In this document: one piece after another, positions 705-54,667 of the stretch
Position numbering within the stretch: the stretch's first letter is position 1
Layout: each line of letters begins with the position of its first letter
Virus record (IMG/VR): IMGVR_UViG_3300011113_000491
Span: 32,001 to 96,000 of that record
Origin: a virus
Direction: 5' to 3' (one strand)
DNA: 64,000 nt
Made by a program: the position numbers and the translations under genes
Notes under the pieces: generated by a model
Databases searched by the model: none
Told to the model about the DNA's origin: nothing
What the model saw: the letters and a program-made list of their open reading frames with translations, nothing else

Positions 705-2450
705 TTAAATCCTTGTTACTGTTATTATATTAATTGACGTATTTTCTAAATTTCCAGTTGTTCTGGGACTTACAATTTGACTAGATCTTGGTGTTCCGGT
801 GAATTGAGTAACATGTGTCGGAATTGATACATCTTCAGGAGTTACTGTTGTAGATTCACCATCCGGTAAAATAATTGAGCTAATTCTAGAATATTGAGAT
901 TTAATATCACCACTAACTCTTACATATTCATACGAAGCATCTTCAGAAACATTTTTAATATCTATTGTTGATATTGGTGAATAATTTTCTACAACCTCTA
1001 CTCCTGTCCAATTTGTAGGGTTTTCTAATTTCTCTTTATCACTTCCAGAGAAACCACTTTTTACAAATTTTAAAGTAGTTAAAAATGATTGAATTTCTTT
1101 TGTATATTTTGAAGATGTGGATTTACCAGCAACAGATGAAACTTCTCCTTCTTTTATTGGATTTTCAACCAATGAAAAGAAATTTATCTCTCTCGGTAAA
1201 ATTAAACTTTCATCTGCTAATTCTTGTTTTCCTAAACTAATAGAAGTCATTACGCTATTTGAATTTAATGTTTTTGCAGGATCTAAACCTAGTTTATCAA
1301 CAGGATCTAAATTTATTTGAATTTTTGAATTTATAAAGTCCTGATGATCATTCATTCCGGGTAAAAGAGATGTATCTATTGATAAACTTATGTCTTTATA
1401 ATTCTCACCCCTAGAAACAACTTTAATACCGTTTACTTGATGATTTCCGTTTGAATTTATAAATGTAGTCAATTCAATTACTGCACCATAACCTGTGAGT
1501 GATTTTATTTGTAATCTTGGATTTGCTTGTGTTGCAATCAATTCTGCTACAGTTTCTGATGATAAATCTACAAACGCTGAAACTATACATCCATCTTCAA
1601 ATCCATTATTATACCAAGTCGAATATAGTTTATAATAAACAGAATTAGGAGACAATTGACCAGTTTGAATTTGTTTTTCAATTAAATCAAATTTTGATAA
1701 TATTTCTATAGATTCTTCAACCTCTTGATTTCCATAAAAGACAGAAACAAAATCATCATCTTCATCTTCAAACAAGAAATAACACTCTCTGCACGTTAAT
1801 TCTGGTATTGATGTGTATAAATCACCTAAAGCGTATGATTCATAGCTGTTACCAGAAGTTGGTATTTCTTTTTCTTTATTTACATATACTGCACAGTTAC
1901 CAGTTGCTCCAACCACTCCATTACAAAAAGATGTACATCTATCCCAAGGAGTAGTTCCACCCAATCCCACTTCGTATTCGTCTAAACTTGGAACTGGAAT
2001 CCAGTCACTAGTTACAAATTTTTCAAGAGATGGAGTGATCTTAAAGAGGGCCAACCAACTATAACCATCGGAAAAGGAAACTTCTCCCGTCGTATGGGAT
2101 GGTTTAAATCTAGAAACAGTATCGTAACCATCTAGTCTATTGTTTGAATTATCAGATGTACAAAGATAAACGTAACCATTGTCTCGATTATAGATGTAAT
2201 AATTTTGTACGCTTGAAGAAATATTTGGCTTCCAAGGAGTATACTGAGATCCTCTATTCCATGAAATTCTAGGAACAACTGCTGAAACATCATTTCTAGA
2301 AACTTTATATGTTATTTCTGCATCTTTCCAAGCTTGCCTGAATAATTCTGAAGAATTTGGTTGCAATGAAGTTTGAGTAGTTTTTCCAAGTAAAAAATAA
2401 TTTTGATATTTTCTACCAACTTCTAGTTTGTAATCTATTGCTTTATTCAT
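705..2450 (-). CDS. gp8: Baseplate wedge subunit gp8-like
   Basis: VPRISW...YIYN...VYLC..N...PSHT...DGYSW..LF...FVTSDWIPVP signature; synteny gp6-gp7-gp8. Confidence 0.8.
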   Translation of the reverse strand: MNKAIDYKLEVGRKYQNYFLLGKTTQTSLQPNSSELFRQAWKDAEITYKVSRNDVSAVVPRISWNRGSQYTPWKPNISSSVQNYYIYNRDNGYVYLCTSDNSNNRLDGYDTVSRFKPSHTTGEVSFSDGYSWLALFKITPSLEKFVTSDWIPVPSLDEYEVGLGGTTPWDRCTSFCNGVVGATGNCAVYVNKEKEIPTSGNSYESYALGDLYTSIPELTCRECYFLFEDEDDDFVSVFYGNQEVEESIEILSKFDLIEKQIQTGQLSPNSVYYKLYSTWYNNGFEDGCIVSAFVDLSSETVAELIATQANPRLQIKSLTGYGAVIELTTFINSNGNHQVNGIKVVSRGENYKDISLSIDTSLLPGMNDHQDFINSKIQINLDPVDKLGLDPAKTLNSNSVMTSISLGKQELADESLILPREINFFSLVENPIKEGEVSSVAGKSTSSKYTKEIQSFLTTLKFVKSGFSGSDKEKLENPTNWTGVEVVENYSPISTIDIKNVSEDASYEYVRVSGDIKSQYSRISSIILPDGESTTVTPEDVSIPTHVTQFTGTPRSSQIVSPRTTGNLENTSINIITVTRI

Positions 2451-2462
2451 TTTTACACCAAA

Positions 2463-3608
2463 TTAACTTGCACATGCCGCTCCGCATGTTAGTCCTGCGT
2501 TTGGACTTGTAAACCCAGAAACATAACACATGTTTATGAAGTTATCAATATTTATATCGTTAAACTTAAATCCAACTATATTCTCCGACCAATTTGGGAA
2601 AACATGAGTTGGTTTATTCCAAGGACTCGCTTCAGCACATCCCTCACAATAAGTCAATCCATACAGAGAAAAAGTAGATCCACCAAAGCTACCAACACCT
2701 ATTTGTGTGTTATATGTTGTTCCAAGTTGATATGAATGATAATTTCCGAGTATAGGAGTTTCACAAATTAATAAATCAGTATCTCCCGGTACTCCTGCTC
2801 CTGGATAATCTTCTATGTTAGTTTCTAAAAGTGCTCTTAATCCTGCTGGATGTAGAGTATTCATGAAACTAGTTTTGTATAAGTCTTGATTTATTCCAGT
2901 TTTAAGAATATATGAAAAGTCTTGAAACCAATCAGAATCTTGTATTCTGGAATCGTTTAAAGAACTTCCCCCTAAGTCTAGAGTTTCATCATACTCACCA
3001 ACTCCACCTCTAAATGTGAAATTTTCAGAGTAGAACTTACCACCATTTAATCTTAATAGATTAACTTTTGGGTAGTAAATTGAAAAGTCTTCTTCAGAAA
3101 ATTCAGGAAATAGTGTTAGAAAAAAATACTTGATAGAATCAATCGTTGTTTTCTTTTGATTAAAATTTTTGGATATACCTTTTAATAATTTTATGAATTT
3201 TTCATTAGAAATAGAACCACCATTAAATTCAAATTTAGAAGGATCTAGTCCATTTCCATAAATTTGTAAAAATCTATTCAAATATGAAGTTCTTGTTTTT
3301 TCTATATCAACAAGATCTAAAAGATTTTGAGATAAGGTGTATTGAGCACCCGATGGATTATCACAATACAACCAATCATAGTATTTTTGAAGGAAATCAA
3401 AAACCGAAACTTGTTTTGTTCCATATTCATTTTCTAATTTAACTTTTTCCTCAACTATCCAAAAAGGAACATACCGACTAATATCAAAATTGGTAGGACA
3501 TTCGAATGAAGTATCCTCAAAAAAATCTTGAGAGGATAGCAAATCAAAGAAGTTTTGTAATTCACTTCTTAAACTAGATGATTGATTTGCTAGATATGAA
3601 TAATTCAA
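2463..3608 (-). CDS. gp7: Baseplate wedge protein gp7-like (short)
   Basis: FLQKYYDWL, IQDSDWFQDFSYIL and HPAGL motifs; position between gp6 and gp8. Confidence 0.7.
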   Translation of the reverse strand: MNYSYLANQSSSLRSELQNFFDLLSSQDFFEDTSFECPTNFDISRYVPFWIVEEKVKLENEYGTKQVSVFDFLQKYYDWLYCDNPSGAQYTLSQNLLDLVDIEKTRTSYLNRFLQIYGNGLDPSKFEFNGGSISNEKFIKLLKGISKNFNQKKTTIDSIKYFFLTLFPEFSEEDFSIYYPKVNLLRLNGGKFYSENFTFRGGVGEYDETLDLGGSSLNDSRIQDSDWFQDFSYILKTGINQDLYKTSFMNTLHPAGLRALLETNIEDYPGAGVPGDTDLLICETPILGNYHSYQLGTTYNTQIGVGSFGGSTFSLYGLTYCEGCAEASPWNKPTHVFPNWSENIVGFKFNDINIDNFINMCYVSGFTSPNAGLTCGAACAS

Positions 3609-5344
3609 AGTATTTTTACCTCTGAGATATAAAAGTTATTAACATTGTTATATTTTGATTGTAGTATTTTTTCATTCATTGGAATATTAATTGTGAATGA
3701 AACACTAGAAATATCTGCAAGATATATTATTCCTTGATTTATCAATATTCTACCATAATCTAAAGAAGTATCTTCTATTCCGGTTAGTGAATTAAAGCCT
3801 CTAATTTTTACAAAATTATCGAAGGAAGTGGTTGGTCCGGTTACTACTTTCAATATAATTGGTGTTCCATAAATATTTGAAAATTCAGTGCTTATGGTTG
3901 TAGAACCAATAAATGGGAATTTAAAAGGACTTCCTAAATTTATATTAGTTTCGCTACTCCTATTTAAGTCCATATTTGTTATAATATTTTTTCTATATTT
4001 TATATCAAATCTATCAGCAGATATTGAAATATCATCATATTGTTCCATTATAGAATTTGATAATTCAAATGAATCAAAGGTATAATTGAATGAATTATAT
4101 GTTATAGATTCTTGTATTTTATTTTTAACTTTTTTGATCGCTTCTAATTTTTGAGTTGGAGTCGGAGATACATTTTTATATGTGAATTTTACGTCTAGTA
4201 AAAATTCATTGTAAACGGGCGAAACATATTCCGGTAACACAGTAATTACTGAGTATTCCTTCAGATATGATATAATAGTGTTTGGATTTAAGGAATTATC
4301 TGCTATTGATACAAAGACTCTACCATACCTTGGGGGCTGTAGTTCATCGCCTCCAAAAATTGAAATTTGGTCAACGGAATCTATTAGTTTAGAATCCAGT
4401 AATAATCCCATATAATCAGATTTCGTAACGGCTCTACCTTGTGAAGAAAACCATTTTGGTGCTAAAAATTTAATTAAATTAATGTTTGGTTGATCTAGTC
4501 CGCCCCTAGACTCATTGCACTCATCACAAGACACCCCTACATTTAAGTTTCCGGGAGTATATGCTACAGGTGTTCCTGCTCTAAACTGATATATGTTATT
4601 TCCCTTAACTCCAGATGAAACCATATATCTTATCTCTAGCGCATCTCCATCCTCAATGGAAACACCCAAACTATTTTCAATTCCAAATTGAACTATAAAT
4701 CCACCAGTGCTTAGTCTTTCTACAAAATATATTTTATCATCTACTCTGAATGGAGTTCCTATGTTTCCAGATAAAGACCAAATTTCTGAATTTACCTTTA
4801 CTTGAATTGTAGATATATCAATATTTTCGTTTACTATTAAATATCTTTGTTTTTCAAAATCAAAGGAACTTATCGCAGATGTATCGTTTACTAACTGTCC
4901 TTCTGTTACTTCTATGACAACATCGCTGTCGTTCACTACTCCAGAATTTAAATTTCTAAAAACATATTCTATGCCATCTTCGTTTATTCCATAAAAATAT
5001 TCAAGTTCTGGAAATGAAGAATTATCTGCTTGATTTATACCTGTTACTTGTATAGTTGCCCTAGCAGATCTTTTGCCAGGAACGGTATATCCTAATGGTT
5101 TTGCTAAAGATATTATAGAATCTAATCTTTGTGCAGAATCTAAAAACATTTCACTTGATACCATGTTCATGTAATATGCATAGTAAAAAGTATTATATGC
5201 TAGTAAATCCACCAAAGCTCTAATAGCAGAGCCCTCGTAGTTGTAATCTTTAATTATGCTTTGATTTCGTAAATATTCAATTAAACTGCTTTTAATATCT
5301 TCAAAGTCTAGATTCCCAAGTACATTTGTTGGCGTATTTGCCAT
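3605..5344 (-). CDS. gp6: Baseplate wedge subunit gp6
   Basis: LDFEDIKSSL, DYNYEGS, LLAYNT, EMFLDSAQ, QGRAVT..DY, PPRYGRVF motifs. Confidence 0.93.
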   Translation of the reverse strand: MANTPTNVLGNLDFEDIKSSLIEYLRNQSIIKDYNYEGSAIRALVDLLAYNTFYYAYYMNMVSSEMFLDSAQRLDSIISLAKPLGYTVPGKRSARATIQVTGINQADNSSFPELEYFYGINEDGIEYVFRNLNSGVVNDSDVVIEVTEGQLVNDTSAISSFDFEKQRYLIVNENIDISTIQVKVNSEIWSLSGNIGTPFRVDDKIYFVERLSTGGFIVQFGIENSLGVSIEDGDALEIRYMVSSGVKGNNIYQFRAGTPVAYTPGNLNVGVSCDECNESRGGLDQPNINLIKFLAPKWFSSQGRAVTKSDYMGLLLDSKLIDSVDQISIFGGDELQPPRYGRVFVSIADNSLNPNTIISYLKEYSVITVLPEYVSPVYNEFLLDVKFTYKNVSPTPTQKLEAIKKVKNKIQESITYNSFNYTFDSFELSNSIMEQYDDISISADRFDIKYRKNIITNMDLNRSSETNINLGSPFKFPFIGSTTISTEFSNIYGTPIILKVVTGPTTSFDNFVKIRGFNSLTGIEDTSLDYGRILINQGIIYLADISSVSFTINIPMNEKILQSKYNNVNNFYISEVKIL

Positions 5345-5745
5345 TATCTGTTCCTCTCTACGCTAATTGTTACGGTTTGAATTGCTCTGGTATTTACATT
5401 TTGATATGTTAAATCTATTAGTAAAATTCTAGGATTGTTTGTATCTAGATTGAAATCAACTTCCATCACCTGTATTCTGGGTTCAAATCTATTAACTGCT
5501 GCTTGTAGATCTATTTTATACGGTGTCAATCTAACATCTTCATTGTTTATATTTTCAAATAACAAATCGTAAAAAACAGTACCAAAATCAAATTTAAAAG
5601 GTTTTTCTCCAAGTCTAGTCAATACTATATTGATTATAGACTGTCTAATTGCATTACCGTCTTTCTTTAAACTCAAATCGTTGGTAAATGAGTTTTTTGA
5701 AAAGAAAAATGGTATGTCGGAGAAAATATTCTTAGTTATTTGCAT
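5344..5745 (-). CDS. gp25: Baseplate wedge subunit gp25 (start corrected to MQITK)
   Basis: AIRQSIINIVLT..GEKPF...FG...LFE and FEPRI motifs; late promoter 5 nt upstream of ATG 5745. Confidence 0.9.
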   Translation of the reverse strand: MQITKNIFSDIPFFFSKNSFTNDLSLKKDGNAIRQSIINIVLTRLGEKPFKFDFGTVFYDLLFENINNEDVRLTPYKIDLQAAVNRFEPRIQVMEVDFNLDTNNPRILLIDLTYQNVNTRAIQTVTISVERNR

Positions 5746-5750
5746 GGCTT

Positions 5751-5758
5751 TATTTATA
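5751..5758 (-). promoter_or_regulatory. T4-type late promoter TATAAATA
   Basis: Exact consensus 5 nt upstream of the gp25 ATG. Confidence 0.85.
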
Positions 5759-5759
5759 G

Positions 5760-8700
5760 TTAAAATAAGTAAGATAATAATTTTTCTAAAGCAGTTGTAG
5801 TATAATCTGGTGACACCGGCAACGTATCTCGTATCAAAGTTAAATCTTGAGTGCAATTTGAATCTTTATAGAAACTCATATTGATTTCAGATATCAACCA
5901 CCTTCCGTGGAGATTCTTTTCAGATACTGCCATATTTGGGTCAGGATTTAGTTGTTTTATCTTTATAATATCTCCTACCTTTACTACACTTGTTGGTGGA
6001 ATTGATATTGTTATTTGCTGTGCTCCTATTTGTGATATTAGTGCTTTTCTAATCAACGGAGTGGCATCTGGAGTATCCCAGAAAGTAGCGTATGTTCTGC
6101 TATATTCTAGATATTCTTTAAATTTTTCTCCTTGATTTGGACAATCGCAACTACATGGATTTGTTGGGTCGCTCCAAAGACAACCAATATACTCTTCTCC
6201 CAATACACTTTCAATTAAATCACATTCTTTAATATCTAAATATTTTTTAAACAACTCTAGGTAACTTGGTTCTGGTTCATCTGGTATATGCTCTTGTGCT
6301 GGACAATTGCAATATGGATTTTCTGGACCACACTCATCATTTGAAATATAACCATCTGGATTTGCACATTTTAGTTTTCCACAGATATTTGGAATTTGTC
6401 TAGAGAATACCACAAATTGTGCAGAAAAATTGTCATCAAACACATCATGATTTGGTGACATTGTTTTTGGAGAAACCAAACCATAATCAGTTTCTCCAGT
6501 CAAATCATACTTCCAAACATCTTCAGGAATCAGACTTGGACGATATAACATAAAGTCCCCAAACATCCAATGCATTGTTGTTTTATGAAAGTAAGCATTT
6601 AATGCACCAAGTGAATTTGGAGAATGAACCTCTGCATGATTTGCTAGTGGTAAATTATTAGTATTTGAAAGAACACTAAGAAGCTTCAATCCAAAACTTT
6701 CTACAAACGACTTTCCTGCTGGAGTTAGACGCAACCATCTATCCACTTCATCCCCATACCACCAGTAGTAATCTTTATATTTGTGTGCAAAAATATCACC
6801 CAACACTCCACTACTTTCTCCATCAATTTCCGCAAACTTAGTAGAAAGCATATGGAACAACTTTTGTGGTATGAAGATGTTCTTTGGAATATGGAAAGAC
6901 CACCAAGATCTATGTGGTTTTACTTTTCTATGCGAGTATTGTAAATATCCACTAGCGTGGGCACTTTCTTTATATTCTGGATCAACATCCGCAGATCTTG
7001 TATACCAATCGTAATTATTATTACCTTTTTGTAATAGATCTACATCCGCATCTCCATGATACCATGATGATTTCCACCACCATCCCTTTGGATCTGCTGC
7101 ATAATATGGGAAAGTGGTTTCAAAACCAACTTCTGGCCACAATTCCATTCCATTATTTGTTAATGATGTATCATTTAGATTTCTATATTCATCCCACCAT
7201 CCATATTGCTTTTCCGTTTCCTCATCATCGACTTTTGATTTCTTAACTGCCACATCGAATCCATAAGGATCCATTCCTATTACTGCTACATTATTTCTAA
7301 TGGTTTGTCTGCCAGTTGGACCCGGTGTCAACGATACCAAGTAAGGTAGGAAATATTCAGTTCCTGCGTCTCTAATAAATCCATCGGGGAAATCTACAAT
7401 TCTATCTAACCCAATTGGTTTAGTAAATTCAATTCTAACGTAAGAACTTAATTGCTCTTTCTTTAAATTTGGTGGTATAGATTGTGGATTTATATTGAAC
7501 AAATTAAAAGTATTTTGGAAAGATTGACTCGTGACTGATGCCGGTATGTCCGTTTGAGTATTGCTAATTTCTAAAAATGAACTACTAAACCCGCTACCGA
7601 TCATTTGTTGATGTGGTATACTGAGATAACCACTCAATTCGATATTTGAGTTTTCCCCGCAAGTTGGAGCAAACTCTGAAACAAATGGGAAGTTATTTAA
7701 TTTGTTAACATCTTCGTTGTAATTATATGTCTTGAATAATTGTCTTTGAGATACAAATCTAGTTTGATATTTCTGTGAATAGTATGGATGGTTTGTTCCT
7801 TGAGTTTCATTGGTTGTATTATTCCAGAAGAAGTTATATAACCACTCTCCTATCTCACCCCCGGTTATTCCTTTGTTCTTTGCTAATAATTCGTATCTAC
7901 TACCTCTTATTTGTTTTTTCTTTATCGATTTAATATTAAATAAAGATTTTTTAGAAGCAGTTATAGGTTGAGCTCTTCCTCCATCTATACTTCCTTCAAT
8001 TTCTGTGCTGATATCAGTAAATACATTTTTTCCGGGGATCTTGGAATAGAAGAATGCCTTTCTGTTCCACCACTCTTGGTAGTTTTCGTTGAATTTTGTT
8101 ATAAATTCACTAGCAAAAATATCTCTTGCATATATGAGTAAAGATTTTTCTGCATTTAGAATTTTCAATTCTTCTATTGCTCTTCTTTTTTCTACTTCAA
8201 GATATAAAGGATTAAAGCATAAGGTGTTATAGCAATCTCCATTTTCTAAGCATCTTCTTGTAGTTTCTGGATCTCCATTCGGACCTATGTAATCATCTAT
8301 ATCTGTAAATGCAGAAGATCCACCCGGTTCGAATCTATATTCGTTATACCACCTACCTTCAGTACCAATATACTGAACTAAAGTTTTCATAAACTTATTT
8401 TTAGAACACAAAGAAGCCCATTGTGGCAATGGAGAATATGTAGTTGCCTGTTCTAATGTACAATTGCAGCAATTAGAATCGTCAAATTCTATATCCAATG
8501 CACTAGTAGAAAAGTTATTACACTTTATACATTTACCTTGAGGCAAAGTGATAAGCGGAACTCTTCCCAATCCATCAACATAATTAAATCCAATACAAGA
8601 CGCAGGCTCTCTATTAAATACACTACCAGTTAATGTATCTGTGCATCCTTGTCTTAGACATGCAGTAGTCCCCTCTTGACATAGATTGTAATTTCCTGTG

Positions 8701-11492
8701 GGCCCAGTTATTGAGCAATTGTTTATAGCATCACAAGAAAGACCTCTAAACCAAGTGGTTCTATTTGGTTCTCCAAATATTTCTATTGCATAAGAGTAGC
8801 AGTCATCAAAGGTTGAATTGTCTGTACATGAACAATTATCGCCACTTAATTGATTCAAAATTCCACAGTCTTTACAACAAGCACCAGTTGTAGTTGTACT
8901 TCCAAAGCATATTGCATAATAATTAGCAATTTGTTCTGGTGTTGGATTAGATCCTAAAGATACTAGTGAATTTGAGGGAGCGGAAGAAGATTGTTCCAAT
9001 AATGGACAAACTTTACAAGTATCTCCCTGTGAACCTATTGAGGGATTGTCGTTGCATCCACAGAGTTCTAGTCCATTCCACAAAGTTGGTTCGTTGTTTG
9101 TATTACAGGGCGGAACTTCCTCTCCACCCCCGCCACCGCCACCACCTCCTGCTCCTCCACCACTACCACAAGGACCATTTCCAGCATCACTCCAAACATT
9201 ACCAACATTTTCACATGATTGTTCATACAATTCAGAAAGAGTAGAACATGGTGGATAATTAGGATTTGCATCGTAGCAACATGCATTGATGCACCCATTT
9301 TGACCTCCACTGCATGTTCCCATGAATGTATATTCTGGAGGACACGGTCCGCCGTCACCACCGGAACTACCAGCAAGCAACATAGATCTAAATGCCACTT
9401 CTGCTTGAGATCCTATTGGAGTTGTTTCGTTTTCAAGTGGTTCACAACAGTCTAAAATTCTGCTGTTAATCCAATTATCAGCTTCTGTAATATATGAATC
9501 AACTGCACTTAAGAAAGCATTTGCTTCAAGTATTTTACCGTCAATTTTTGAAATTTCTTTATCGTATTGATTTGTTCCTCTGGTCAAAACTCCAGAAACA
9601 TAGTCTGGAATTTCGTTTTTCATATTGTAAAATTGACCAATAGTAGAAGCATACCAATCGTTTGGAGTATAGTCGTTGGGAGAAACGCCCTCTGGAATTT
9701 GATAATTCAAATTATCTAAATTTACAGATAGTGTTAGGCCGTGTTGTATTTCTTCATCTTTAGAATCATAGTCTATTACATCAGTAAAGGATCCAGCTGC
9801 TACTATTTTATATTCTTGCTGAGAGTCAGAGAATATACCTTCCTTACCAAATAGGAATGCATATTCTACAGCAGTTTCTGCAAGATTTGCAATTAAGGCT
9901 AGAGGATTAAAAAATGTAAGAATGTCTTCTACATTACCAAATGTATTTTCTGCACAACAGACCACACATCTATAAACTTCCCATTGTCTCTTTAAATTCT
10001 TAAGTCTTACAAATTCTTTTCTTTTTTCCTTTAGAGGTATTCTGATTTTTTTGTAAATATTATATAGTGTTTTGATTTCTAATTCTGTACTGTCAAATTG
10101 GGGTTGCCATGTGTTGTTTGTCCATCGAGAATCTTTTTCTCTATCTAAGTAATCCCACCAAACCACTTCTTGATCTTGCTGAGTATCTTTTGATAATGGA
10201 GGATTACTTGCAAAAGGAGTATTATATGTTTTTGTTTCATAAAATCCATATATGTTATCTTTTAGTAAAGTAGCAGGCTTTGGTACTTTTTCTTGATTTA
10301 ACAATGAAACTTTAATGGGATCAGTATCAACAGTATCAGATATTAGTTTATATTCTTCGACATGTGATATATCGGAAAAATCACGGTGATAGTTGTAATC
10401 AACAACACTATATGTAAATCCTGATTTACTGCTTAAGAAGTCGGAATATACATTTGAATAATCTGGTTTTATTCTCACATAGTGAGACATGAATGCATTA
10501 TCTTGAAACAAAGATAATTGATCATTTTGTTTTATAACTCGAATAGAAATGATTCTCTTCTTATCGGCAAGGTCGTCGCTATTTAAATCTAATTCAATCT
10601 TTTCTGAACCATTTGATTTTAAAATACTCTCTAATGATTTAAAGTGCCACCCATCACGATCTTTCCAGAAGAAAAAGTTTGGTGCTCTTGTATTATCCTT
10701 TGGTAAAGCATAATTCGTTATGTATGTCATCAACTTAGGAACACTAATTTGACCTTGTGCAACACCGGATGGAAATGATATTTCTGAACTTTTTAACCAT
10801 ATCCCATTTTTAGTTCCTTCAATTTCAATCGGAGATAGATTTAATTTTTCTGCTATTACATTTACTAGTCCGGGAATTTCGTCTCTTTGCTCAAAGGCTA
10901 CATTTGCAGCGAAAGATGCAATTCCACCTCCACCTTGTTGTAATAATCCAATAGCAGAATCAAAAATGGATGTTTCTTTTGCAATGTAACCAACAAAATC
11001 TTCATCAAATTCTAATAAAGATTTATTGAAAACATTATTAAATATCTCTTCAGATATAAACTCTAGTCTATAGACTATGACCTTTTCTTCAGTTGTATCT
11101 TTTATAGAAGCATATGATGCAAAATTGTTTATTATTTTTTGTGAGCAAACAAAGAATTGTAGAGTTACAGTTTCTTCTGTATCATAGAATCCAAATTCTA
11201 TTGTTAATAATTCACTTCCGTTTAAATTTAGTTGACCTATCCAATTGTCTTTATCGATTACATCAATATGACCATACATGAATGGAGAAAATATATTTTC
11301 ATGTATTGATATGCTTAGTAGTTTACTTTCCCCACTCCCTACTGTATCTGGACTTACAATTTCAAAGGAATTATTAATAATCCAATTACTTTTATCCTCC
11401 ATATAGTTAAGAAGTTTATCAATCTTAACGGATACTAGGAACGAAGTTAAAGGTGATGGAGAACTATCTGCTTTTTGATTTATATCAGTCAT
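5760..11492 (-). CDS. Giant baseplate hub-like protein (gp27/late control D-like ends) with a Cys/Gly-rich insertion
   Basis: N-terminal IHENIFSPFMYGHIDVID and FFFWKDRDGWHFKSLESI, C-terminal VKVGDIIKI...HGRWLISEINMSF typical of hub proteins following gp53; 1910 aa. Confidence 0.65.
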   Translation of the reverse strand: MTDINQKADSSPSPLTSFLVSVKIDKLLNYMEDKSNWIINNSFEIVSPDTVGSGESKLLSISIHENIFSPFMYGHIDVIDKDNWIGQLNLNGSELLTIEFGFYDTEETVTLQFFVCSQKIINNFASYASIKDTTEEKVIVYRLEFISEEIFNNVFNKSLLEFDEDFVGYIAKETSIFDSAIGLLQQGGGGIASFAANVAFEQRDEIPGLVNVIAEKLNLSPIEIEGTKNGIWLKSSEISFPSGVAQGQISVPKLMTYITNYALPKDNTRAPNFFFWKDRDGWHFKSLESILKSNGSEKIELDLNSDDLADKKRIISIRVIKQNDQLSLFQDNAFMSHYVRIKPDYSNVYSDFLSSKSGFTYSVVDYNYHRDFSDISHVEEYKLISDTVDTDPIKVSLLNQEKVPKPATLLKDNIYGFYETKTYNTPFASNPPLSKDTQQDQEVVWWDYLDREKDSRWTNNTWQPQFDSTELEIKTLYNIYKKIRIPLKEKRKEFVRLKNLKRQWEVYRCVVCCAENTFGNVEDILTFFNPLALIANLAETAVEYAFLFGKEGIFSDSQQEYKIVAAGSFTDVIDYDSKDEEIQHGLTLSVNLDNLNYQIPEGVSPNDYTPNDWYASTIGQFYNMKNEIPDYVSGVLTRGTNQYDKEISKIDGKILEANAFLSAVDSYITEADNWINSRILDCCEPLENETTPIGSQAEVAFRSMLLAGSSGGDGGPCPPEYTFMGTCSGGQNGCINACCYDANPNYPPCSTLSELYEQSCENVGNVWSDAGNGPCGSGGGAGGGGGGGGGEEVPPCNTNNEPTLWNGLELCGCNDNPSIGSQGDTCKVCPLLEQSSSAPSNSLVSLGSNPTPEQIANYYAICFGSTTTTGACCKDCGILNQLSGDNCSCTDNSTFDDCYSYAIEIFGEPNRTTWFRGLSCDAINNCSITGPTGNYNLCQEGTTACLRQGCTDTLTGSVFNREPASCIGFNYVDGLGRVPLITLPQGKCIKCNNFSTSALDIEFDDSNCCNCTLEQATTYSPLPQWASLCSKNKFMKTLVQYIGTEGRWYNEYRFEPGGSSAFTDIDDYIGPNGDPETTRRCLENGDCYNTLCFNPLYLEVEKRRAIEELKILNAEKSLLIYARDIFASEFITKFNENYQEWWNRKAFFYSKIPGKNVFTDISTEIEGSIDGGRAQPITASKKSLFNIKSIKKKQIRGSRYELLAKNKGITGGEIGEWLYNFFWNNTTNETQGTNHPYYSQKYQTRFVSQRQLFKTYNYNEDVNKLNNFPFVSEFAPTCGENSNIELSGYLSIPHQQMIGSGFSSSFLEISNTQTDIPASVTSQSFQNTFNLFNINPQSIPPNLKKEQLSSYVRIEFTKPIGLDRIVDFPDGFIRDAGTEYFLPYLVSLTPGPTGRQTIRNNVAVIGMDPYGFDVAVKKSKVDDEETEKQYGWWDEYRNLNDTSLTNNGMELWPEVGFETTFPYYAADPKGWWWKSSWYHGDADVDLLQKGNNNYDWYTRSADVDPEYKESAHASGYLQYSHRKVKPHRSWWSFHIPKNIFIPQKLFHMLSTKFAEIDGESSGVLGDIFAHKYKDYYWWYGDEVDRWLRLTPAGKSFVESFGLKLLSVLSNTNNLPLANHAEVHSPNSLGALNAYFHKTTMHWMFGDFMLYRPSLIPEDVWKYDLTGETDYGLVSPKTMSPNHDVFDDNFSAQFVVFSRQIPNICGKLKCANPDGYISNDECGPENPYCNCPAQEHIPDEPEPSYLELFKKYLDIKECDLIESVLGEEYIGCLWSDPTNPCSCDCPNQGEKFKEYLEYSRTYATFWDTPDATPLIRKALISQIGAQQITISIPPTSVVKVGDIIKIKQLNPDPNMAVSEKNLHGRWLISEINMSFYKDSNCTQDLTLIRDTLPVSPDYTTTALEKLLSYLF

Positions 11493-11493
11493 T

Positions 11494-12402
11494 TTAAATA
11501 TTTATGTCTATTTGAACACTTCTTCCAATCGTGTCACTCTTTGCTGCTCTCTTATACAATTCAAATAATGTTGATATTATTTCTTGTCTAGGAACTTTTA
11601 TAGAATATTTTTCATACTCCAAATCATTTTCATATTGTCTTACAGTTTTTACTAACGCAGGTATTGTTTGATTGTTGATATACCGATAAAGTAACGTATA
11701 CCGTATAGTGCTAGTATCTTCATAATCACCAGTGTCTTCTATGCTGGTAGAAGTTGAATCTGCGGTGACACTCGTTAATACACCAGATGCATTTACAATT
11801 CTATATGGACTAATAATTTCAGATCCTTGATAAAAGTATTTAACTACGTCAAGGTTTTGTGTTACTTTATTTTTTAATGTTATTAAATTAGAAACTTGCT
11901 CAAAACTGTCTCCAATATTTCTTACAAATATTACTGTGTCGTTAGAAGAAAATGTCCCTTGTCCACCAAAAACTACTATATTTCTTACAGTAGAATCCCA
12001 TTTAGTCACTGTAGCATATTTTGATTGATCTATAGTAGAACCGTTAGACGCAACCATAATATCACCGGGTCTCAGATCTGGTAAATCGTAAGTAAAAAAG
12101 GAAGAACCCTTGTACTTATTTTCAAGATATGTATTAAAGGTGGTATAATCCATAGGCCAATCCGTGTGAGGATTGACTATTTGATTCGACAAAAATAAAA
12201 ACCAAGAATAATTAGGATTGAAATAATACTTGTATGCTACTCTCTCAGGAGAGGACCCATCAGTTATAAGATAATTGTCAAATAGTCTTTCATCTAATAA
12301 AGTCTTTTGTGTTATGGAAACTCTTCTAAAGATATCACTTAATTGAATTGTTTTTCCGTTTTGGAATGTATAATTTATTTTAGGAAAAGTTCTAAAAAAC
12401 AC
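11494..12402 (-). CDS. gp53: Baseplate wedge protein gp53
   Basis: MFFRTFPKINY, DIFRRV, Y.I.DG..PE.VAYKYY, W......N.I.NP..DWP motifs. Confidence 0.9.
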   Translation of the reverse strand: MFFRTFPKINYTFQNGKTIQLSDIFRRVSITQKTLLDERLFDNYLITDGSSPERVAYKYYFNPNYSWFLFLSNQIVNPHTDWPMDYTTFNTYLENKYKGSSFFTYDLPDLRPGDIMVASNGSTIDQSKYATVTKWDSTVRNIVVFGGQGTFSSNDTVIFVRNIGDSFEQVSNLITLKNKVTQNLDVVKYFYQGSEIISPYRIVNASGVLTSVTADSTSTSIEDTGDYEDTSTIRYTLLYRYINNQTIPALVKTVRQYENDLEYEKYSIKVPRQEIISTLFELYKRAAKSDTIGRSVQIDINI

Positions 12403-14436: not shown

Positions 14437-15168
14437 ATGAATCTTTCTGAAATTATAAAATCAACATCACCAAAGTTTAGCGATATTGTTCCTTCTACAA
14501 ATAAAAAAATATGGTTTAGACCATTTTTAGTTAAAGAGGAAAAATTATTATTAATTGCACAGGAAATGGGATCAGAGCAAGAAATATTGAAATGTATATC
14601 ACAAGTAATACAGTCATGTTTTGATGATATAGGAGATGTTTCTAAAATTCCACTATTTGATCTTGAATATCTTTTTATAAAACTAAGATGTAAATCAGTT
14701 CAAGAACTAGCCAGTCCAATCTTAATTTGTCCAGTTACTGGTGAAGAAGTAACATTAAAACTTAATTTAGAAGAAATAGAAGTTATTAAAGATCCAAAAC
14801 ATTCTAAAACTTTAAAAATCTCTGATAATTTAATAATCGGTATGAAATACCCATCTATATCTTTATTCTTAAATTCCAATATAGATTCAATGGAACTTTC
14901 AGATTTTTATGATTTGGCTGTTAATTGTGTTGAGTATGTGGAAACTAGAGATGAAAAAATATTAGCAGATAGTGTGAGTAAAGAAGAAATTAAAGATTTT
15001 ATCGATAATATGACAAAGCAACAATTTGATATGATTATTAATTTTTTCAGCACCATGCCAAGAATAGAAAAAACAGTAAAATATATAACTTCTGATAAAG
15101 AAATAAGATCTATAACTTTAAGGGGAATTAAAGATTTTTTCGGGTTGGCCTCAGTCACACAAACTTAA
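14437..15168 (+). CDS. gp26: Baseplate hub assembly protein gp26
   Basis: PST.K.I.FRPFLVKEEKLLLIA, FDLEYLFIKLR.KSV, FF.TMP, G..DFF motifs. Confidence 0.92.
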   Translation: MNLSEIIKSTSPKFSDIVPSTNKKIWFRPFLVKEEKLLLIAQEMGSEQEILKCISQVIQSCFDDIGDVSKIPLFDLEYLFIKLRCKSVQELASPILICPVTGEEVTLKLNLEEIEVIKDPKHSKTLKISDNLIIGMKYPSISLFLNSNIDSMELSDFYDLAVNCVEYVETRDEKILADSVSKEEIKDFIDNMTKQQFDMIINFFSTMPRIEKTVKYITSDKEIRSITLRGIKDFFGLASVTQT

Positions 15169-17207: not shown

Positions 17208-18119
17208 TTAGTCGTCGGCTAGCTTCTTGAAGTATTCAAGAGCGTCCGTGGAATCATCTACCTCATCTTCAACGGGAGCCTTCTTGGTCTTAGAAGTGCC
17301 ACCCCACTGCTTTTCGGCGAGTTCTTCCTCATCAACATCCTCCGCAGTACGCTGACCCATAGGCGCCTTACCACGGATGTCACCCTTTAGAACGCTCTCA
17401 AGCTTCGTCTTCAGTTCCTCATAGGTCTTGAAGTTAGAAGGAGCAATAAGTTCCTTCAGTGAGTGCTGAGAACGCCATACCTTCTCCAACTGTGCATCGT
17501 CACCACCGAGAAGTGGGGAGGATGAATCAAACTCAGACTTGTCATAGTTGACATAACCGCCAACATTACGAACCTTGAGTTTGAAGTTTGCTCCAGTCCA
17601 GAAGTTGAACGGATCAATTGGTTCTTCGTCATTGAATTCAGGCTGCATTGCCTCCTGAACCTTCTCAAAGATCTTTTGACCGTACTTGAACAGGAACACC
17701 TTTCCCTCGTTCTGAGGATTAGCAGGATCGCTAACCACCAGAATATTGGAGATGTAGTTTAGCTTTCGCTTACGCTGCCGTGCAAGATCCTTGTCGCTGT
17801 CTAGACCACTCTTCCAGAGTAGACTGTTCATTTCTGAAACCGGATCCTGCTTTCCAAGAGTGGTCAGTGAGTTTTCGATGTACCAACCACCTGGACCTTG
17901 GAATGCGTGGGAGTAGAGCTTGACCCACGGAACATCCTCACCATCAATAGTGGGGAGGAATCGGATAACAGCAAAACCGTTCTTTGCCTTATCCAGAGTA
18001 GGACGCCAGAAACGCTCGTCCTTGTAATCCTTCTTGCCGCCTTCTTCTTCTGCAAACTTCTTGACTAGAACATCGATGCTAGTCTTTGACTTCTTCTTAA
18101 AATCGCTAAATGAACTCAT
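17208..18119 (-). CDS. gp32: Single-stranded DNA-binding protein gp32
   Basis: DERFW.PTLDKA.NG.AVIRFLP, GGWYIENSLTT, NEGKVFLFKYG, NYDKSEF, acidic tail ending YFKKLADD. Confidence 0.98.
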   Translation of the reverse strand: MSSFSDFKKKSKTSIDVLVKKFAEEEGGKKDYKDERFWRPTLDKAKNGFAVIRFLPTIDGEDVPWVKLYSHAFQGPGGWYIENSLTTLGKQDPVSEMNSLLWKSGLDSDKDLARQRKRKLNYISNILVVSDPANPQNEGKVFLFKYGQKIFEKVQEAMQPEFNDEEPIDPFNFWTGANFKLKVRNVGGYVNYDKSEFDSSSPLLGGDDAQLEKVWRSQHSLKELIAPSNFKTYEELKTKLESVLKGDIRGKAPMGQRTAEDVDEEELAEKQWGGTSKTKKAPVEDEVDDSTDALEYFKKLADD

Positions 18120-22698: not shown

Positions 22699-23062
22699 TG
22701 GAGGCCGGGGGAGTCGAACCCCCGTGTACCCTATACTTATGTATAAGCCCTACATGATTAGTTTCTTTTCATAAACAATTTCGTAAGGTAAGAAACAAAC
22801 TTACGAATTGCTTTGACTGTTAATTTCGAATCGTTTACCAGTCACTCACGATTCTATCAGATTTGAGAAGTCAGGAATTATCTGAGTCACTTCCTGTACC
22901 CTCTTGACGGTCCTAGTGAATTAAGGATCGACTGTTTCTCAAGCAGCCATTGCAAATGCTCTAGTGTTGGCATTTGTGGTTTGGTTGTTTTTAACGAAGC
23001 CATCAACCATCTTCGTCATGCTCTTCTACATTTGTCTAGAATATCGAATCCGATTGGCCCCC
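22699..23062 (-). ncRNA. ssrA: tmRNA, tag ANTRAFAMAA
   Basis: 5-prime GGGGGCC..GGATTCGA; 3-prime GGGGGTTCGACTCCCCC-GGCCTCCA with G3-U70; tag ORF at 22971-22939 ending AA-TGA; 364 nt. Confidence 0.95.
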
Positions 23063-27158: not shown

Positions 27159-27196
27159 TACCCTGAGAAGAACTTTCTTAAGATTGTTCTTCTCAA

Positions 27197-27271
<75 letters not shown>

Positions 27272-29675: not shown

Positions 29676-30001
29676 AATAATTCCTTTATTTTTAAACTTT
29701 CTGTTTTGGATTGCATTAGATCTTGAGTTGTATAGAAATATATTACGCTACTCAATCTAAAACTTTTCCACTCCTTATCAATTATATCATAAACTGGAAC
29801 GAGATCAACATCTTTCTGAAAAGGAGAGAATATTTCTTGCAAAGATCTTCTCGCATTTCTATTAAGCATACCATAATTCAATGAGCAATACAAACTTCTA
29901 TATTTTCCATTTGTCACTTTTTGAAAATAAACCTTACACACTCCGGCAGATAGATATTTAAGAACCAAATCTCTTTGTAATTGATTTTCCTTTAACATCA
30001 C
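29672..30001 (-). CDS. WYL-like/SH3 small protein (DUF2693-like)
   Basis: V.FQKV.NG.YR...C.L and VYDI...EWKSFR pattern. Confidence 0.65.
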   Translation of the reverse strand: MMLKENQLQRDLVLKYLSAGVCKVYFQKVTNGKYRSLYCSLNYGMLNRNARRSLQEIFSPFQKDVDLVPVYDIIDKEWKSFRLSSVIYFYTTQDLMQSKTESLKIKELL

Positions 30002-47858: not shown

Positions 47859-48131
47859 ATGGCAAGACCTACAGACCCGTTCGATCCCGCGTCTATGGAC
47901 GCATACATCAACCCGATTCTCAATCGCGCGGCAATCGATGTCGTCTATTTGAACGACATCGCATCCAAAGCGGAGCTCATGCTTGAGTTGTTCATACAGC
48001 ACGGCCTGCTCGACATTGAAGTGACCGGCAACGGTGACTTCGCCTACCGTGTGTCCGACATTTGGAAGAAAGAACTCGCCGCTGAAGGACACGATCTCTC
48101 TCGCATTCCCCTCTCGCACCTCTCTTACTGA
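47859..48131 (+). CDS. Hypothetical early protein, leaderless
   Basis: Promoter TTGTGA-17-TAGACT at 47824-47852, 6 nt to ATG. Confidence 0.7.
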   Translation: MARPTDPFDPASMDAYINPILNRAAIDVVYLNDIASKAELMLELFIQHGLLDIEVTGNGDFAYRVSDIWKKELAAEGHDLSRIPLSHLSY

Positions 48132-48141
48132 AATACGAAAT

Positions 48142-48510
48142 ATGCCATTCGACCCCTACAACAACGAACACACCGACAGCAGCCTCTACTTCGATGACTT
48201 CGGAGACACCGACGACCGCATGGAAATCCTGCGCGAGCTCGATGAGGACTACGACCCCATGAGCGACCCCGATCCCTTCGATGACGATGAAGAATGGTCA
48301 GAGGAGGACGACGACCGCGGCGCCGTTCGTGAGGACGAGGATGAGAACTACGACGACCTGGATGACGACGACCTTGAGGATGACGACCACGAGGAACTGC
48401 CGCATGAGGACGACGACGACTTTGATGACTGCTTCAACTGCGACGGCAGCATCTCCGATAAGGGATTCGCCCTTCTCGGTGACATGGATCGCAGGGGTCT
48501 CTTTGTCTGA
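48142..48510 (+). CDS. Extremely acidic protein (start MPFDPY)
   Basis: Long D/E tracts with spaced aromatic residues. Confidence 0.7.
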   Translation: MPFDPYNNEHTDSSLYFDDFGDTDDRMEILRELDEDYDPMSDPDPFDDDEEWSEEDDDRGAVREDEDENYDDLDDDDLEDDDHEELPHEDDDDFDDCFNCDGSISDKGFALLGDMDRRGLFV

Positions 48511-49371: not shown

Positions 49372-49525
49372 GACGCGTGATAGTATCAGTATAGAAATAT
49401 GCTAGTTTATGAAATATGCGATTTTAGGAAATATGCAAATCATAATCCAACAAATCTAGCAACAAGGATTCCAACGCAGAACGAAATAAGCGAAATGAGA
49501 ATCTTGTGAATCTTCAAGTCGTTCT

Positions 49526-50094
49526 TCATGTTGATCTTTTCCCCGAGCGGCCGCGGCCGCCTCTTCCGGTCAATCTACGCATCAGTGCTTGCTTCAATAC
49601 ATCTCTGATTGTTGGTTCGTCAACAGTCGGTGATTCTGTTGGAGTTGGTGCAACTTCTGGTCTAGTTTGCTGACCAGAAACTGAATCAGATGAAGCAGAT
49701 CCACTACTTTGTTGTGTTGGAGTAGTCTGCTGCGGCGGTGATGTGGTCGCCGAGGATTGGGTATTTGATGGATTCCATCTTGAATACCAATCATTTCTTT
49801 CATCAGCTGCCGGTGTTGAAGATGCCGGAGTTGGAATATCTGAAACTGGACTTTCTATTGGTTGCCACGATGAAGCAATAGAAGAAGAACTTGTTGGCAA
49901 TCTTCCTTGCTCAACAGGGGGTGTCATGGGAACCGCCTGACCAACTTCCTCTTCTGGAGAAGTAGTAAGTTCTCTCCTAGCAGTTAGTTGCTTTGATGGA
50001 GTTGGAGTAGAAGGTTCCGTTGTCCCCACATTTCCCGGAGGAGTTGCCATCGGTCTAACCGATGGATCACTTCGGGGTGGGGTTACCGTTTTCC
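49526..50094 (-). CDS. Pro/Ser/Thr-rich -1 frame extension of the upstream late protein
   Basis: Frame is open back to the GGGAAAA heptamer at 50089-50095; ATG 50050 has no SD and sits in a hairpin. Confidence 0.6.
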
Positions 50095-50814
50095 CTTACC
50101 ACGCCCCAATGAAGTAACTTGACCTCTGGCAATTTTTAGCAAAGATGGTTTTTCAATTGGTACTTCTGGCTCTGGGAAGTTTCTATCAAGAATCTTCTGT
50201 AACATCCCTGCATATCCCGCGGGATCTTGTACTCCTCGGGCCTTCCATTCACTGCCAGTTGTCTGCTGGCGACTTGCTGGAGGCCGAGCGACCTGTCTAT
50301 ATCTTACTCCGGCGCGTGGTCCGCCGAGCTCTGGTTCCCTCGTTAATTCTGAACCAAAATCTCCGCCGAGAGGATATTGTCTGGGAGACAGGTTCAAAAT
50401 TGCCTGTTGAATATACTTCTTGAGAGCTCCAGGCAGACCCAACCCAGCAAGGAGACCTCTATTTTTGATGTTTGTACCTATTGCCTTCGCTCCAGCAAAT
50501 AGTGGTGATTCCTTTTTGCTAGATGCTGTTCTCATTGCACCAAAAACATTAATTTCGTTTAACTGATTGTTAATTCTTGCTTTGAAATGTTCTTTCATAT
50601 CCATATTGAGGTTTCCTTCTTTTTCTAATTTGAATGCAGCTTTTTGAAGTTTTAGTTCTTCTTCTCTTGCCTTATTTATGCTATCGTATATTTGTCTTTC
50701 GGCAGCAGACATTGGTTTTCTTGCTCGTAAAGCATCGGCAATCTGTGCCATAAACTCATCGTCTGCCGGGGTCGTGGTTCCCTTTATTACTTTATCTAAA
50801 TCGTTTTGTTCCAT
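50083..50814 (-). CDS. Late protein (start MEQND) with internal MKEHFKARINNQLNE segment
   Basis: TATACATA at 50820-50827, 5 nt upstream of ATG. Confidence 0.7.
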   Translation of the reverse strand: MEQNDLDKVIKGTTTPADDEFMAQIADALRARKPMSAAERQIYDSINKAREEELKLQKAAFKLEKEGNLNMDMKEHFKARINNQLNEINVFGAMRTASSKKESPLFAGAKAIGTNIKNRGLLAGLGLPGALKKYIQQAILNLSPRQYPLGGDFGSELTREPELGGPRAGVRYRQVARPPASRQQTTGSEWKARGVQDPAGYAGMLQKILDRNFPEPEVPIEKPSLLKIARGQVTSLGRGKGKR

Positions 50815-53075: not shown

Positions 53076-53310
53076 TCTTACTTCCGATCTTTTCGATTAG
53101 ACCGTCGATGAAAGATTTTGGTTCTTCCTTTTTCTCAACAACTGGGACTTGGATTTCGCATCTGTCTTGACCAACAAGAAGACTGGCATTCTTTGGATCG
53201 ATTGCTCTTGCCACTCCCTTCATGATCTCAACTTCAGATAAAAGCATTTCCTGACACTTCCCGGTATATGCCTTGGCGAAATATAACTGAACTTTCTTAC
53301 CTTTCTTCAT
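53056..53310 (-). CDS. Hypothetical protein, paralog of 22460-22681
   Basis: GKCQEMLLSEVE...RAIDPKN; GAGGAG SD. Confidence 0.6.
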   Translation of the reverse strand: MKKGKKVQLYFAKAYTGKCQEMLLSEVEIMKGVARAIDPKNASLLVGQDRCEIQVPVVEKKEEPKSFIDGLIEKIGSKIKGYFE

Positions 53311-53927
53311 ATTCTTCTCCTCTTATTTAAAAATACTGACAACGATAACAACGCAAGACATCCGGGTGCTGGAACGGCGTTCGTTCCAAAACCGCAGTAG
53401 TCAATCAAATTACCTTGTGTGTTTCCGCCCACTGCATTCACTGCTTCAAATGCAAATCTAGTCAGATTGCCAATTGAAGTAATAGTTCCGAAGTGAACTT
53501 GCCATGCTGTGTTATCAGCAGAAAATTCTTGTTGAAATAAAACGGTATCATCTCCACCACCAACAGTCTGATCTGTACCAAAATCAGTGATGGTCAAACG
53601 CATGGTATCAACACCATCTCTTCCACGGTGAGCAAAGTGCCAATTGATTTGATTGAAGTCACCGAGTCCATTTACATTCTGATATAGGGTAGAAGCATAA
53701 TTTGCATTTAATTCTGCAAACGAATTTCCTTCATAGGCAGGAACTCCTAAAAATCCATTTTCCCAGACTTCGATCAAGTTATCTGGTGCAGTAGTTGCCC
53801 AGCCACTTTGAGGATCTGTTCCAGAATAAAAACTGTAGCCCCATGCGGGAAAGCTCTCAAAACCACCATTGACTAAATTTGCGGATGCTGAAGTGGTAAT
53901 TGCTAATGCTGCTAGAAATGCTTTCAA
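53307..53927 (-). CDS. PEP-CTERM (VPAPG variant) sorting-signal surface protein
   Basis: Signal peptide, NLVNGGFE, C-terminal VPAPG-hydrophobic helix-KRRR. Confidence 0.85.
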   Translation of the reverse strand: MKAFLAALAITTSASANLVNGGFESFPAWGYSFYSGTDPQSGWATTAPDNLIEVWENGFLGVPAYEGNSFAELNANYASTLYQNVNGLGDFNQINWHFAHRGRDGVDTMRLTITDFGTDQTVGGGDDTVLFQQEFSADNTAWQVHFGTITSIGNLTRFAFEAVNAVGGNTQGNLIDYCGFGTNAVPAPGCLALLSLSVFLNKRRRI

Positions 53928-54667
53928 ATTCTTCTCCTTGTTGGTTTAACTAACTGATACAGCACGAACGACGAAACGGTTGATGGTGTAGGAACAACCG
54001 ATATTGCTCCCATTCTATAATCAGGTGTCATATCAATATCTGGTAACTGCGTAGAAGTCAGATCAAATGATATGACCGGAGGAGTCGCGTAAAAATCAGA
54101 AACCGCTAGATCAATTGCGGATACTGCTTCAGGCAACTGCTCCGGTTGTGCTGGAGACTCCACTGCATCTTTCGATGAAGTCTTTGGTTTTAATTTAAAT
54201 CTAGTTGGAACAAACGAAGATGATTCCGAGTTAGATTTAGATGAAGTGGCAACATATATGCGATATGGTCCTTCATACTTTGTGTTCTCTTCCAGAAAGA
54301 TATTCTTATTTGAGTTTGCTACAAATTCTTTAAGATTTGGATTTCTTATTTTATTTGGAGTGTTGATGTTGTTGGTTTGATCACTAGATCCAGATTCTGC
54401 TTCTGGAGTTTTGTCTGGATTTGCAATGTTCTGAACGCTAGTAATAGACTCAATCAACTTTTGAATCTTTTCTACTGCTTCTTGTCCAACTATAGTCAAT
54501 GCAACAGTACTGGCAATAGTCAATGCCATAATCTTACCCTGCATACCGACTATTCTTCTTTTATTTTCTTCGTTCTGTTTCTGACAGTCTTCTATTTGAC
54601 CTTTTTTGATTTCTTCTATTTGTTCCTTTAATGATTCGCAAGAAGAACAATTTGGTTTATTTGACAT
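53924..54667 (-). CDS. Membrane protein with degenerate PEP-CTERM-like tail
   Basis: Coiled coil plus TM helix; ends VPTPSTVSSFVLYQLVKPTRRRI. Confidence 0.6.
   Translation of the reverse strand: MSNKPNCSSCESLKEQIEEIKKGQIEDCQKQNEENKRRIVGMQGKIMALTIASTVALTIVGQEAVEKIQKLIESITSVQNIANPDKTPEAESGSSDQTNNINTPNKIRNPNLKEFVANSNKNIFLEENTKYEGPYRIYVATSSKSNSESSSFVPTRFKLKPKTSSKDAVESPAQPEQLPEAVSAIDLAVSDFYATPPVISFDLTSTQLPDIDMTPDYRMGAISVVPTPSTVSSFVLYQLVKPTRRRI

Follow-up and report, generated by a model that had tools for sequence, protein, structure and literature searches.

Genes A and B and their genomic setting

Two adjacent genes, here called A and B, lie on the minus strand of the window, the stretch of 64,000 nucleotides analyzed in this work, which corresponds to bases 32001-96000 of a 123,465-bp IMG/VR record (estimated completeness 55% according to CheckV). 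Gene A (50083..50814, delimited by translation and homologue alignment) extends from an ATG at 50814 to a TAA at 50085-50083 and encodes a protein of 243 amino acid residues in the zero frame. Its 3' end reads ...GGT AAG GGA AAA CGG TAA, and the protein ends in GRGKGKR*. Gene B (49526..50095, minus strand, supported by alignment and dN/dS) is an ORF in the -1 frame, with 189 codons if counted from a heptamer close to the end of gene A and 174 if counted from an internal ATG. It is followed by an ORF for 29 hydrophobic residues, MKNDLKIHKILISLISFCVGILVARFVGL (49440..49529, minus strand, identified from the sequence and its relatives), whose ATG overlaps the TGA of gene B in an ATGA motif. This ORF is conserved in three related loci (L003, L005, and L007). 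It probably codes for a small membrane peptide and, given the ATGA overlap, is probably translationally coupled to gene B.

The virus is a T4-like myovirus, although a distant one. At 705-12402 of the window lie genes for the baseplate wedge, and the gp6-like protein shares 29-34% identity with its counterparts in T4-like cyanophages. The T4-type late promoter motif TATAAATA is present at most 45 nt upstream of 10 of the 80 long ORFs, where 0.26 would be expected; over the whole genome (G000), it is frequently located just 5-18 nt ahead of the ATG. The neighbors of genes A and B code for a CobS-like AAA ATPase, a peptidase, an exonuclease, a polynucleotide kinase-like protein, and orphans. Parts of the stretch were found in 20 sequencing runs from 14 studies; most are labeled freshwater, lake, river, or viral metagenome, and no RNA data set was listed among them. 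The gene A/B family is known only from metagenomes, and it is found in freshwater phage contigs.

Other features of the genome deserve mention. The G+C content varies from 0.28 to 0.60 within this single phage contig, with a high-GC block at ~34-50 kb that ends at gene B. As synteny across this boundary is retained in L003 and L005, it does not represent an obvious chimera. In the block, several long ORFs overlap the one at 48034-48510 (plus strand), whose predicted product is extremely acidic and rich in Asp and Glu. A tmRNA with the tag ANTRAFAMAA (22699-23062) and a tRNA-Lys(UUU) (27196-27270) are encoded on the minus strand of the window; the latter decodes the A-site codon, AAA or AAG, of all the heptamer variants described below. 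Two adjacent orphan genes (53307-53927 and 53924-54667, minus strand) code for proteins with PEP-CTERM-like C-terminal sorting signals, in which VPAPG or VPTPS precedes a hydrophobic stretch and RRRI. NCBIfam gave a weak match only (PEP_CTERM_THxN, E value of 0.046).

The gene A product starts with a conserved, helical region of ~95 residues; its C-terminal half is variable and terminates in the basic sequence ...ARGQVTSLGRGKGKR. Eight homologues were detected at an E value of ≤0.01. The three closest ones (243-282 residues) likewise terminate in GKGKR or GRGKR, and in four others (326-390 residues) the N-terminal ~95 residues are common and the C-terminal half has diverged. Among the relatives, the 390-residue protein of a Logan contig (P0004) has an internal duplication of an NEV...KSPL segment and, after the GRG motif, an 85-residue in-frame extension unlike gene B. 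The C-terminal half is highly modular in this family. A word-based search, which is weak evidence, returned no relative of gene A, and no fused form with a close gene A N terminus, of more than 426 residues, and the search of viral contigs for gene A yielded only L002, which ends inside the gene.

Gene B codes for a Pro-, Ser-, and Thr-rich sequence with a conserved C terminus, EPTIRDVLKQALMRRLTGRGGRGRSGKRST. Five homologues were found, four of which (P0009-P0012; 114-174 residues) were called from the Met codon corresponding to the ATG at 50050 and differ in length by in-frame deletions only. Comparisons of the window with L003, L004, and L007 gave dN/dS ratios of 0.27-0.30 at dS values of 0.63-0.67. 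As dN/dS is ~0.3 and every length variant is in frame, gene B is translated and under purifying selection. Its alignment gave no match in viral contigs.

Searches of Pfam, PHROGs, and NCBIfam with gene A, gene B, and a fused orthologue described below (P0014) returned nothing above threshold. No homologue of gene A was found by tblastn in 50,697 phage records, and blastn of the phage collection gave no match. The best score in the ESM Atlas was 0.85, below the useful range. The AlphaFold2 model, built from an eight-sequence alignment, was uninformative (pLDDT of 46.8), with a helical N terminus and an unstructured remainder. Two known types of paired genes were considered and rejected: a tail assembly chaperone (TAC) pair of the G/GT type, because there is no PHROG or Pfam match and the neighbors are not tail genes, and an IS3-family OrfA/OrfB transposase, because neither gene A, gene B, nor P0014 matches Pfam or NCBIfam.

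An earlier, sequence-only reading of the locus had described gene A as a non-tail late gene coding for a probable internal head protein with a Pro/Ser/Thr-rich tail. Its non-tail nature is borne out by the lack of TAC homology and by the distance of ~38 kb to the baseplate genes, and the composition of the tail by a P+S+T fraction of 0.45. The assignment to the head found no backing in Pfam, PHROG, or NCBIfam matches, in phage-record homologues, or in neighboring head genes. The late class found no support either, as gene A is preceded only by TATACATA, a one-mismatch version of the late promoter motif placed 7 nt before its ATG, versus the exact motif at the 10 ORFs mentioned above. The counterpart of this late-type motif in L005 is TATAGATA.

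Slippery heptamer, predicted stem-loop, and internal ATG

Sequence inspection and three-frame translation revealed a slippery heptamer, G_GGA_AAA (50089..50095, minus strand), in the X_XXY_YYZ register at the end of gene A, with GGA coding for Gly241 and AAA for Lys242. Directly 5' of it lies a -1-frame TAA (50096..50098, minus strand, from three-frame translation). The heptamer is followed by a 6-nt sequence, CGG TAA (50083..50088, minus strand), so that the zero-frame stop codon comes one codon past the slippery site. The TAA at 50098-50096 precludes entry to the -1 frame further upstream in this genome. From the heptamer, this frame is open up to a TGA at 49528-49526, and the ATG at 50050 is its sole start codon before residue 16. 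Slippage would generate a product of 429 residues, with ...GKGK joined to TVTPPR... at the junction.

Motifs of this type are frequent in this genome. The 130 ORFs of at least 100 codons contain 206 in-frame X_XXY_YYZ heptamers (Y = A or T) per 40,027 codons, i.e., 1 per 194 codons, and slippage at 6 of the 206 would add 50 or more codons. Within this genome alone, the signal is thus only weakly beyond chance, and the case rests on the relatives. The other heptamers with at least 50 open -1 codons are at 15135-15141 (plus strand) and 29690-29696 (minus strand) of the window and at 119353-119359, 104423-104429, and 17872-17878 (all on the minus strand) of genome C1. One of those outside the window, G_GGA_AAT, lies 10 codons from the end of a 169-residue ORF and is followed by 439 open -1 codons. 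Most of these cases are probably plain gene overlaps. Transcriptional slippage was ruled out, as the A-run counts merely 4 bases in the window and 6 in L006 and L007.

Folding and alignment predict a stimulatory stem-loop (50024..50082, minus strand) that begins 6 nt past the heptamer. Two outer stems, CCCCAC/GTGGGG and CCCG/CGGG, enclose an inner hairpin of 7-8 bp with a TAG loop, one arm of which, ACCGATGG, includes the ATG. The MFE of the structure is -31.5 kcal/mol (z = -2.12), compared with a mean of -24.5 (sd 3.3) for shuffled sequences, of which 6 in 200 were at least as stable. In the consensus fold, 20 of the 21 pairs are invariant in all five sequences (the window and four relatives) and none of the 21 covaries; the structure is thus supported by stability and invariance and not by compensatory changes. 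Over the 32 nt that separate the stop codon of gene A from the ATG, three of the four relatives are identical to the window and one differs at a single position, although dS in gene B is 0.63-0.67. The probability of at most one difference in 32 nt is ~2-5e-7 if the stretch were neutral and ~0.02 if it were constrained by -1-frame coding alone. That one substitution, AGT>AGC, leaves the residue encoded by the -1 frame unaltered.

The ATG (50048..50050, minus strand, from sequence and folding) lies in the 3' arm of the inner hairpin and is the sole candidate for an independent start of gene B. Its predicted pairing probability is 1.00, and the region from -30 to +30 around it is the most stable of those of 80 ORF starts (-23.5 versus a mean of -6.4 kcal/mol, sd 4.4). 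No purine-rich motif is present upstream of it. Independent initiation at this codon therefore looks disfavored, given the tight folding of the start region and the lack of such a motif. The missing Shine-Dalgarno (SD) sequence itself is weak evidence because most ORF starts of the phage lack AGGAG, including that of gene A, which has no SD sequence either: AGGAG precedes 12 of 80 starts (0.8 expected), and GGAG precedes 21 of 80 (3.5 expected). The ATG is retained in all five DNA sequences, which fits an independent start too, although its place in the stem is by itself a reason for its retention.

Scans for sigma-70 promoters and terminators between 49200 and 51100 revealed none on the minus strand between genes A and B, and no T-run. 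The 37-nt hairpin pattern had no match in viral contigs or in genome contigs.

Relatives across the junction and competing explanations

A scan of metagenomes yielded six related loci, four of which span the junction (L003, L004, L006, and L007). The heptamer comparison covers the window and these four loci; the contigs of P0001-P0003, P0010-P0012, and the P0014 cluster are outside it. In all four relatives, gene B is in the -1 frame relative to gene A, an X_XXY_YYZ heptamer is kept at the same position with respect to the stop codon and the stem, and gene A ends one codon later. Its letters have changed, to C_CCA_AAA in L003 and L004 and to C_CCA_AAA overlapping A_AAA_AAG, followed by TAA, in L006 and L007. 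The codon before the heptamer is GGC in the first pair and ATC in the second, with a final C in both. The peptides just upstream have diverged (GRGKGKR, NIQGPKR, KTQGPKR, and RKIPKK). As the encoded amino acids around the site differ, conservation concerns the slippery motif in its register and not the peptide that it encodes. We put the chance that the pattern would persist given these dipeptides at 1-2%, a rough estimate rather than a computed value. No sequence has a -1-frame stop codon between the heptamer and the ATG, and in L003, L004, L006, and L007 this frame is open for 11-12 codons further upstream than in the window. The four relatives do not represent independent lineages: at the junction, L006 has the same sequence as L007, and L003 is closely related to L004. 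An SD-like sequence that might act as an upstream stimulator, GGAGGAGG, is present in L006 and L007 only and is thus not conserved.

Fused forms of the two genes also occur. A gene B profile had four matches among 1.84 billion representatives, including P0014, a protein of 467 residues as called. Homology to gene A was detected in the N-terminal part of P0014 (BLASTP E value of 2e-9; hhalign probability of 95.6%), and its C-terminal part bears the end motif of gene B. The locus is syntenic, as a spurious read-through extension at the N terminus of P0014 matches the DNA upstream of gene A. The P0014 cluster has seven members, five of which are single-ORF A+B fusions on separate contigs (463-518 residues as called). 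Counted from the aligned Met, the fused orthologues are ~426 residues long, versus 429 for the predicted frameshift product. These proteins represent a sister lineage that encodes both parts in one uninterrupted ORF. The two remaining members of the cluster and P0013 are shorter, B-like calls of 277-303 residues; P0013 and P0021 (277-291 residues) have a Met of their own, and ORFs of this type may be truncated calls or reflect a different split. P0014 had no match in viral contigs. A deleted form is found in L005 (3884-4324), on a 33-kb contig, in which a deletion of ~1.2 kb places codons 1 to ~95 of gene A in frame with the last 17 codons of gene B. This form still has the small downstream ORF attached.

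We consider it likely that genes A and B constitute one recoded gene, from which a programmed -1 frameshift would produce isoforms of 243 and 429 residues. Of the hallmarks of bacterial and phage -1 cassettes, a heptamer in register, an open -1 frame under selection, conservation in diverged relatives, and fused orthologues are found for this locus, and a stimulatory structure is predicted. Most ribosomes that initiate at the ATG at 50814 would terminate at the TAA at 50085-50083 and release the 243-residue protein. A minority would pause over G_GGA_AAA while the stem-loop 6 nt downstream resists unwinding, and the tRNA-Gly and tRNA-Lys would then re-pair one base back, on GGG AAA. Decoding would then proceed in the -1 frame, across the hairpin and the ATG within it, as far as 49526, yielding the 429-residue protein. 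In this form, the body of the gene A product would be followed by a disordered linker rich in Pro, Ser, and Thr and then by an amphipathic C terminus rich in Arg and Gly, and both isoforms would have similar Arg/Gly/Lys-rich tails at their C termini. Because the hairpin occludes the ATG at 50050, the B segment would be made mainly or only as a fusion. Both the slippage itself and its efficiency are what we infer from these features.

All the sequence features that the sequence-only reading had described at the junction were confirmed. The heptamer G GGA AAA is present at 50095-50089 and in register, a -1 stop codon stands immediately ahead of it, and the frame is correctly described as open to 49526. 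The stem placed 6 nt downstream, with the pairings CCCCAC/GTGGGG and CCCG/CGGG, is predicted by folding as described, and the only nearby ATG is indeed buried in the inner hairpin. The remark that this ATG lacks an SD sequence is true and carries little weight in this phage. Conservation in related phages had been put forward as a check, and the heptamer pattern, its register, and the -1 frame are kept in four of four relatives in spite of the changes in the heptamer. The two proposed isoforms, of 243 and about 430 residues (429 as computed), are supported by the same four relatives and by the single-ORF orthologues.

The main alternative, which we regard as unlikely but worth serious consideration, is that A and B are separate genes and that B is translated from the ATG at 50050, the hairpin being opened by a ribosome that terminates 32 nt upstream (translational coupling or re-initiation), with the heptamer as a by-product of a Gly/Pro-Lys-rich C terminus. 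Hairpins that occlude start codons are a classic coupling device, used for instance by RNA coliphages, and coupling appears to be used in this very operon, at the ATGA overlap between gene B and the 29-residue ORF. The retention of the ATG in the five DNA sequences and the calls of P0009-P0012 from this codon also agree with separate genes, as do the many genes of this phage that have no SD sequence. The high frequency of in-frame heptamers and a Lys-rich C terminus that favors A-runs could account for the slippery motif, the extreme conservation of the hairpin equally fits a regulatory hairpin, and the fused orthologues are equally compatible with an ordinary gene fission whose halves are translated separately. 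However, separate genes leave unexplained why an X_XXY_YYZ motif is kept at exactly the same place even though GGG has become CCC and the codon ahead of it has changed, why the hairpin starts exactly 6 nt past it, and why no stop codon interrupts the -1 frame between the heptamer and the ATG in any of the sequences. Moreover, a ribosome stopped at the TAA would melt the outer stem, whereas the inner hairpin of 7-8 bp, with the ATG 32 nt away, would hardly be opened, and no SD sequence is available there to capture a ribosome.

A programmed frameshift thus remains the reading that we favor, and a more speculative extension of it, to which we give little credence, concerns the birth of the gene. 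An ancestral ORF of ~426 residues, of the P0014 type, might have become a two-isoform gene in which the hairpin both drives slippage and locks the ATG, the short isoform acquired a tail, GRGKGKR, that mimics the GRGGRGRSGKR end of the long one, and the phage tRNA-Lys(UUU) could set the ratio of the products. If so, the Pro/Ser/Thr-rich tail could be delivered only as a fusion, and if the tRNA sets the isoform ratio, frameshift efficiency would be controlled by the phage and time dependent.

It appears very improbable that the stem-loop acts mainly at the RNA level, as a site for RNase processing or stability or for protein binding, and that the resemblance to a frameshift cassette is coincidental. 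Nucleotide conservation above that expected from coding alone would fit such an element, all the more as the invariance in close relatives reaches ~100 nt past the stem, to 49919. Rfam gave no match at an E value of ≤10 between 49800 and 50300, and there is neither a T-run nor a terminator-like site on the minus strand. An RNA element would not account for the conservation of the heptamer or for the fused orthologues.

Finally, an indel in the A-run from sequencing or assembly, or a recent inactivating frameshift in what is really one ORF or a pseudogene, would fit the short A-run and the single-ORF orthologues of the sister lineage, but it is extremely improbable given contigs without an indel in three other studies, the same two-frame layout in four divergent loci and in independent protein calls (P0001-P0003 and P0009-P0012), the conservation of a gene A end ...GKR, PKR, or PKK plus stop across diverged relatives, and a gene B that shows a dN/dS of ~0.3 and in-frame indels only. 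Of the four runs compared, X4, X5, and X9, each from a different study, have contigs that bridge the site, which excludes an assembly error; run X3 has no contig over 50052-50419. Among the differences listed for X4, X5, and X9, none falls between 49919 and 50096, and X9 differs from the window at 30 of 750 positions. In X9, TGA replaces the -1-frame TAA before the heptamer (50097 T>C, plus strand).

If our interpretation is correct, the annotation of two hypothetical proteins should be changed to one recoded gene with two products. The locus also provides a compact cassette that is well suited to reporter assays: three variants of the heptamer occur in nature, the hairpin is invariant, and both fused forms and an in-frame deletion are available.

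Comparison with known recoding systems

To our knowledge, few programmed frameshifts of phages have comparative support beyond tail chaperones and some capsid genes. On the comparative evidence, the locus is a further example of the known -1 recoding signal, outside the gene families of lambda G/GT, dnaX, and IS3. In the parts of the recoding literature consulted here, which was not searched specifically for one, no comparable frameshift case is described in a T4-like phage.

The predicted event resembles that of lambda G/GT, where a -1 slip on G_GGA_AAG, i.e., of the G_GGA_AAR type, near the end of the upstream ORF generates a minor, extended isoform next to an abundant short one. As with the TAC frameshift of tailed phages, the two-ORF layout is kept across relatives despite sequence divergence. 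Lambda G/GT is not known to require a strong structure. In contrast, the locus described here is outside the tail module, has no TAC homology, and has a predicted strong downstream stem-loop. A study cited in PMC10885494 (PRFect) proposes that frameshifting plays no part in the production of the tail-chaperone proteins of T4-like phages.

With E. coli dnaX and the OrfAB frameshift of the IS3/IS911 family, the locus shares a heptamer, a spacer within the 5-9 nt range, and an adjacent zero-frame stop codon; the stem-loop predicted here would correspond to the downstream hairpin or pseudoknot of those systems. The A_AAA_AAG motif of these systems followed by TAA is found exactly in L006 and L007, and, as in OrfB of insertion sequences, the downstream frame has a potential start codon of its own. 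In E. coli, AAA in the A site is less slippery than AAG, a point against slippage at G_GGA_AAA. The differences are that no transposase or clamp-loader homology was found here and that the SD-like upstream stimulator is not conserved. Furthermore, the shift shortens the dnaX product, whereas it would lengthen the product here.

The closest parallels for a non-tail phage gene are found among capsid genes. Phage A2 uses C_CCA_AAA. In T3 and T7 (genes 10A/10B) and in Lactobacillus phage A2, some of the molecules made from the capsid gene are extended at the C terminus through a -1 slip (PMC5009743), as we propose for gene A. The extended protein is the major capsid protein in those phages, often with an Ig-like extension, whereas the gene A product has no detectable fold or family and its predicted extension is of low complexity.
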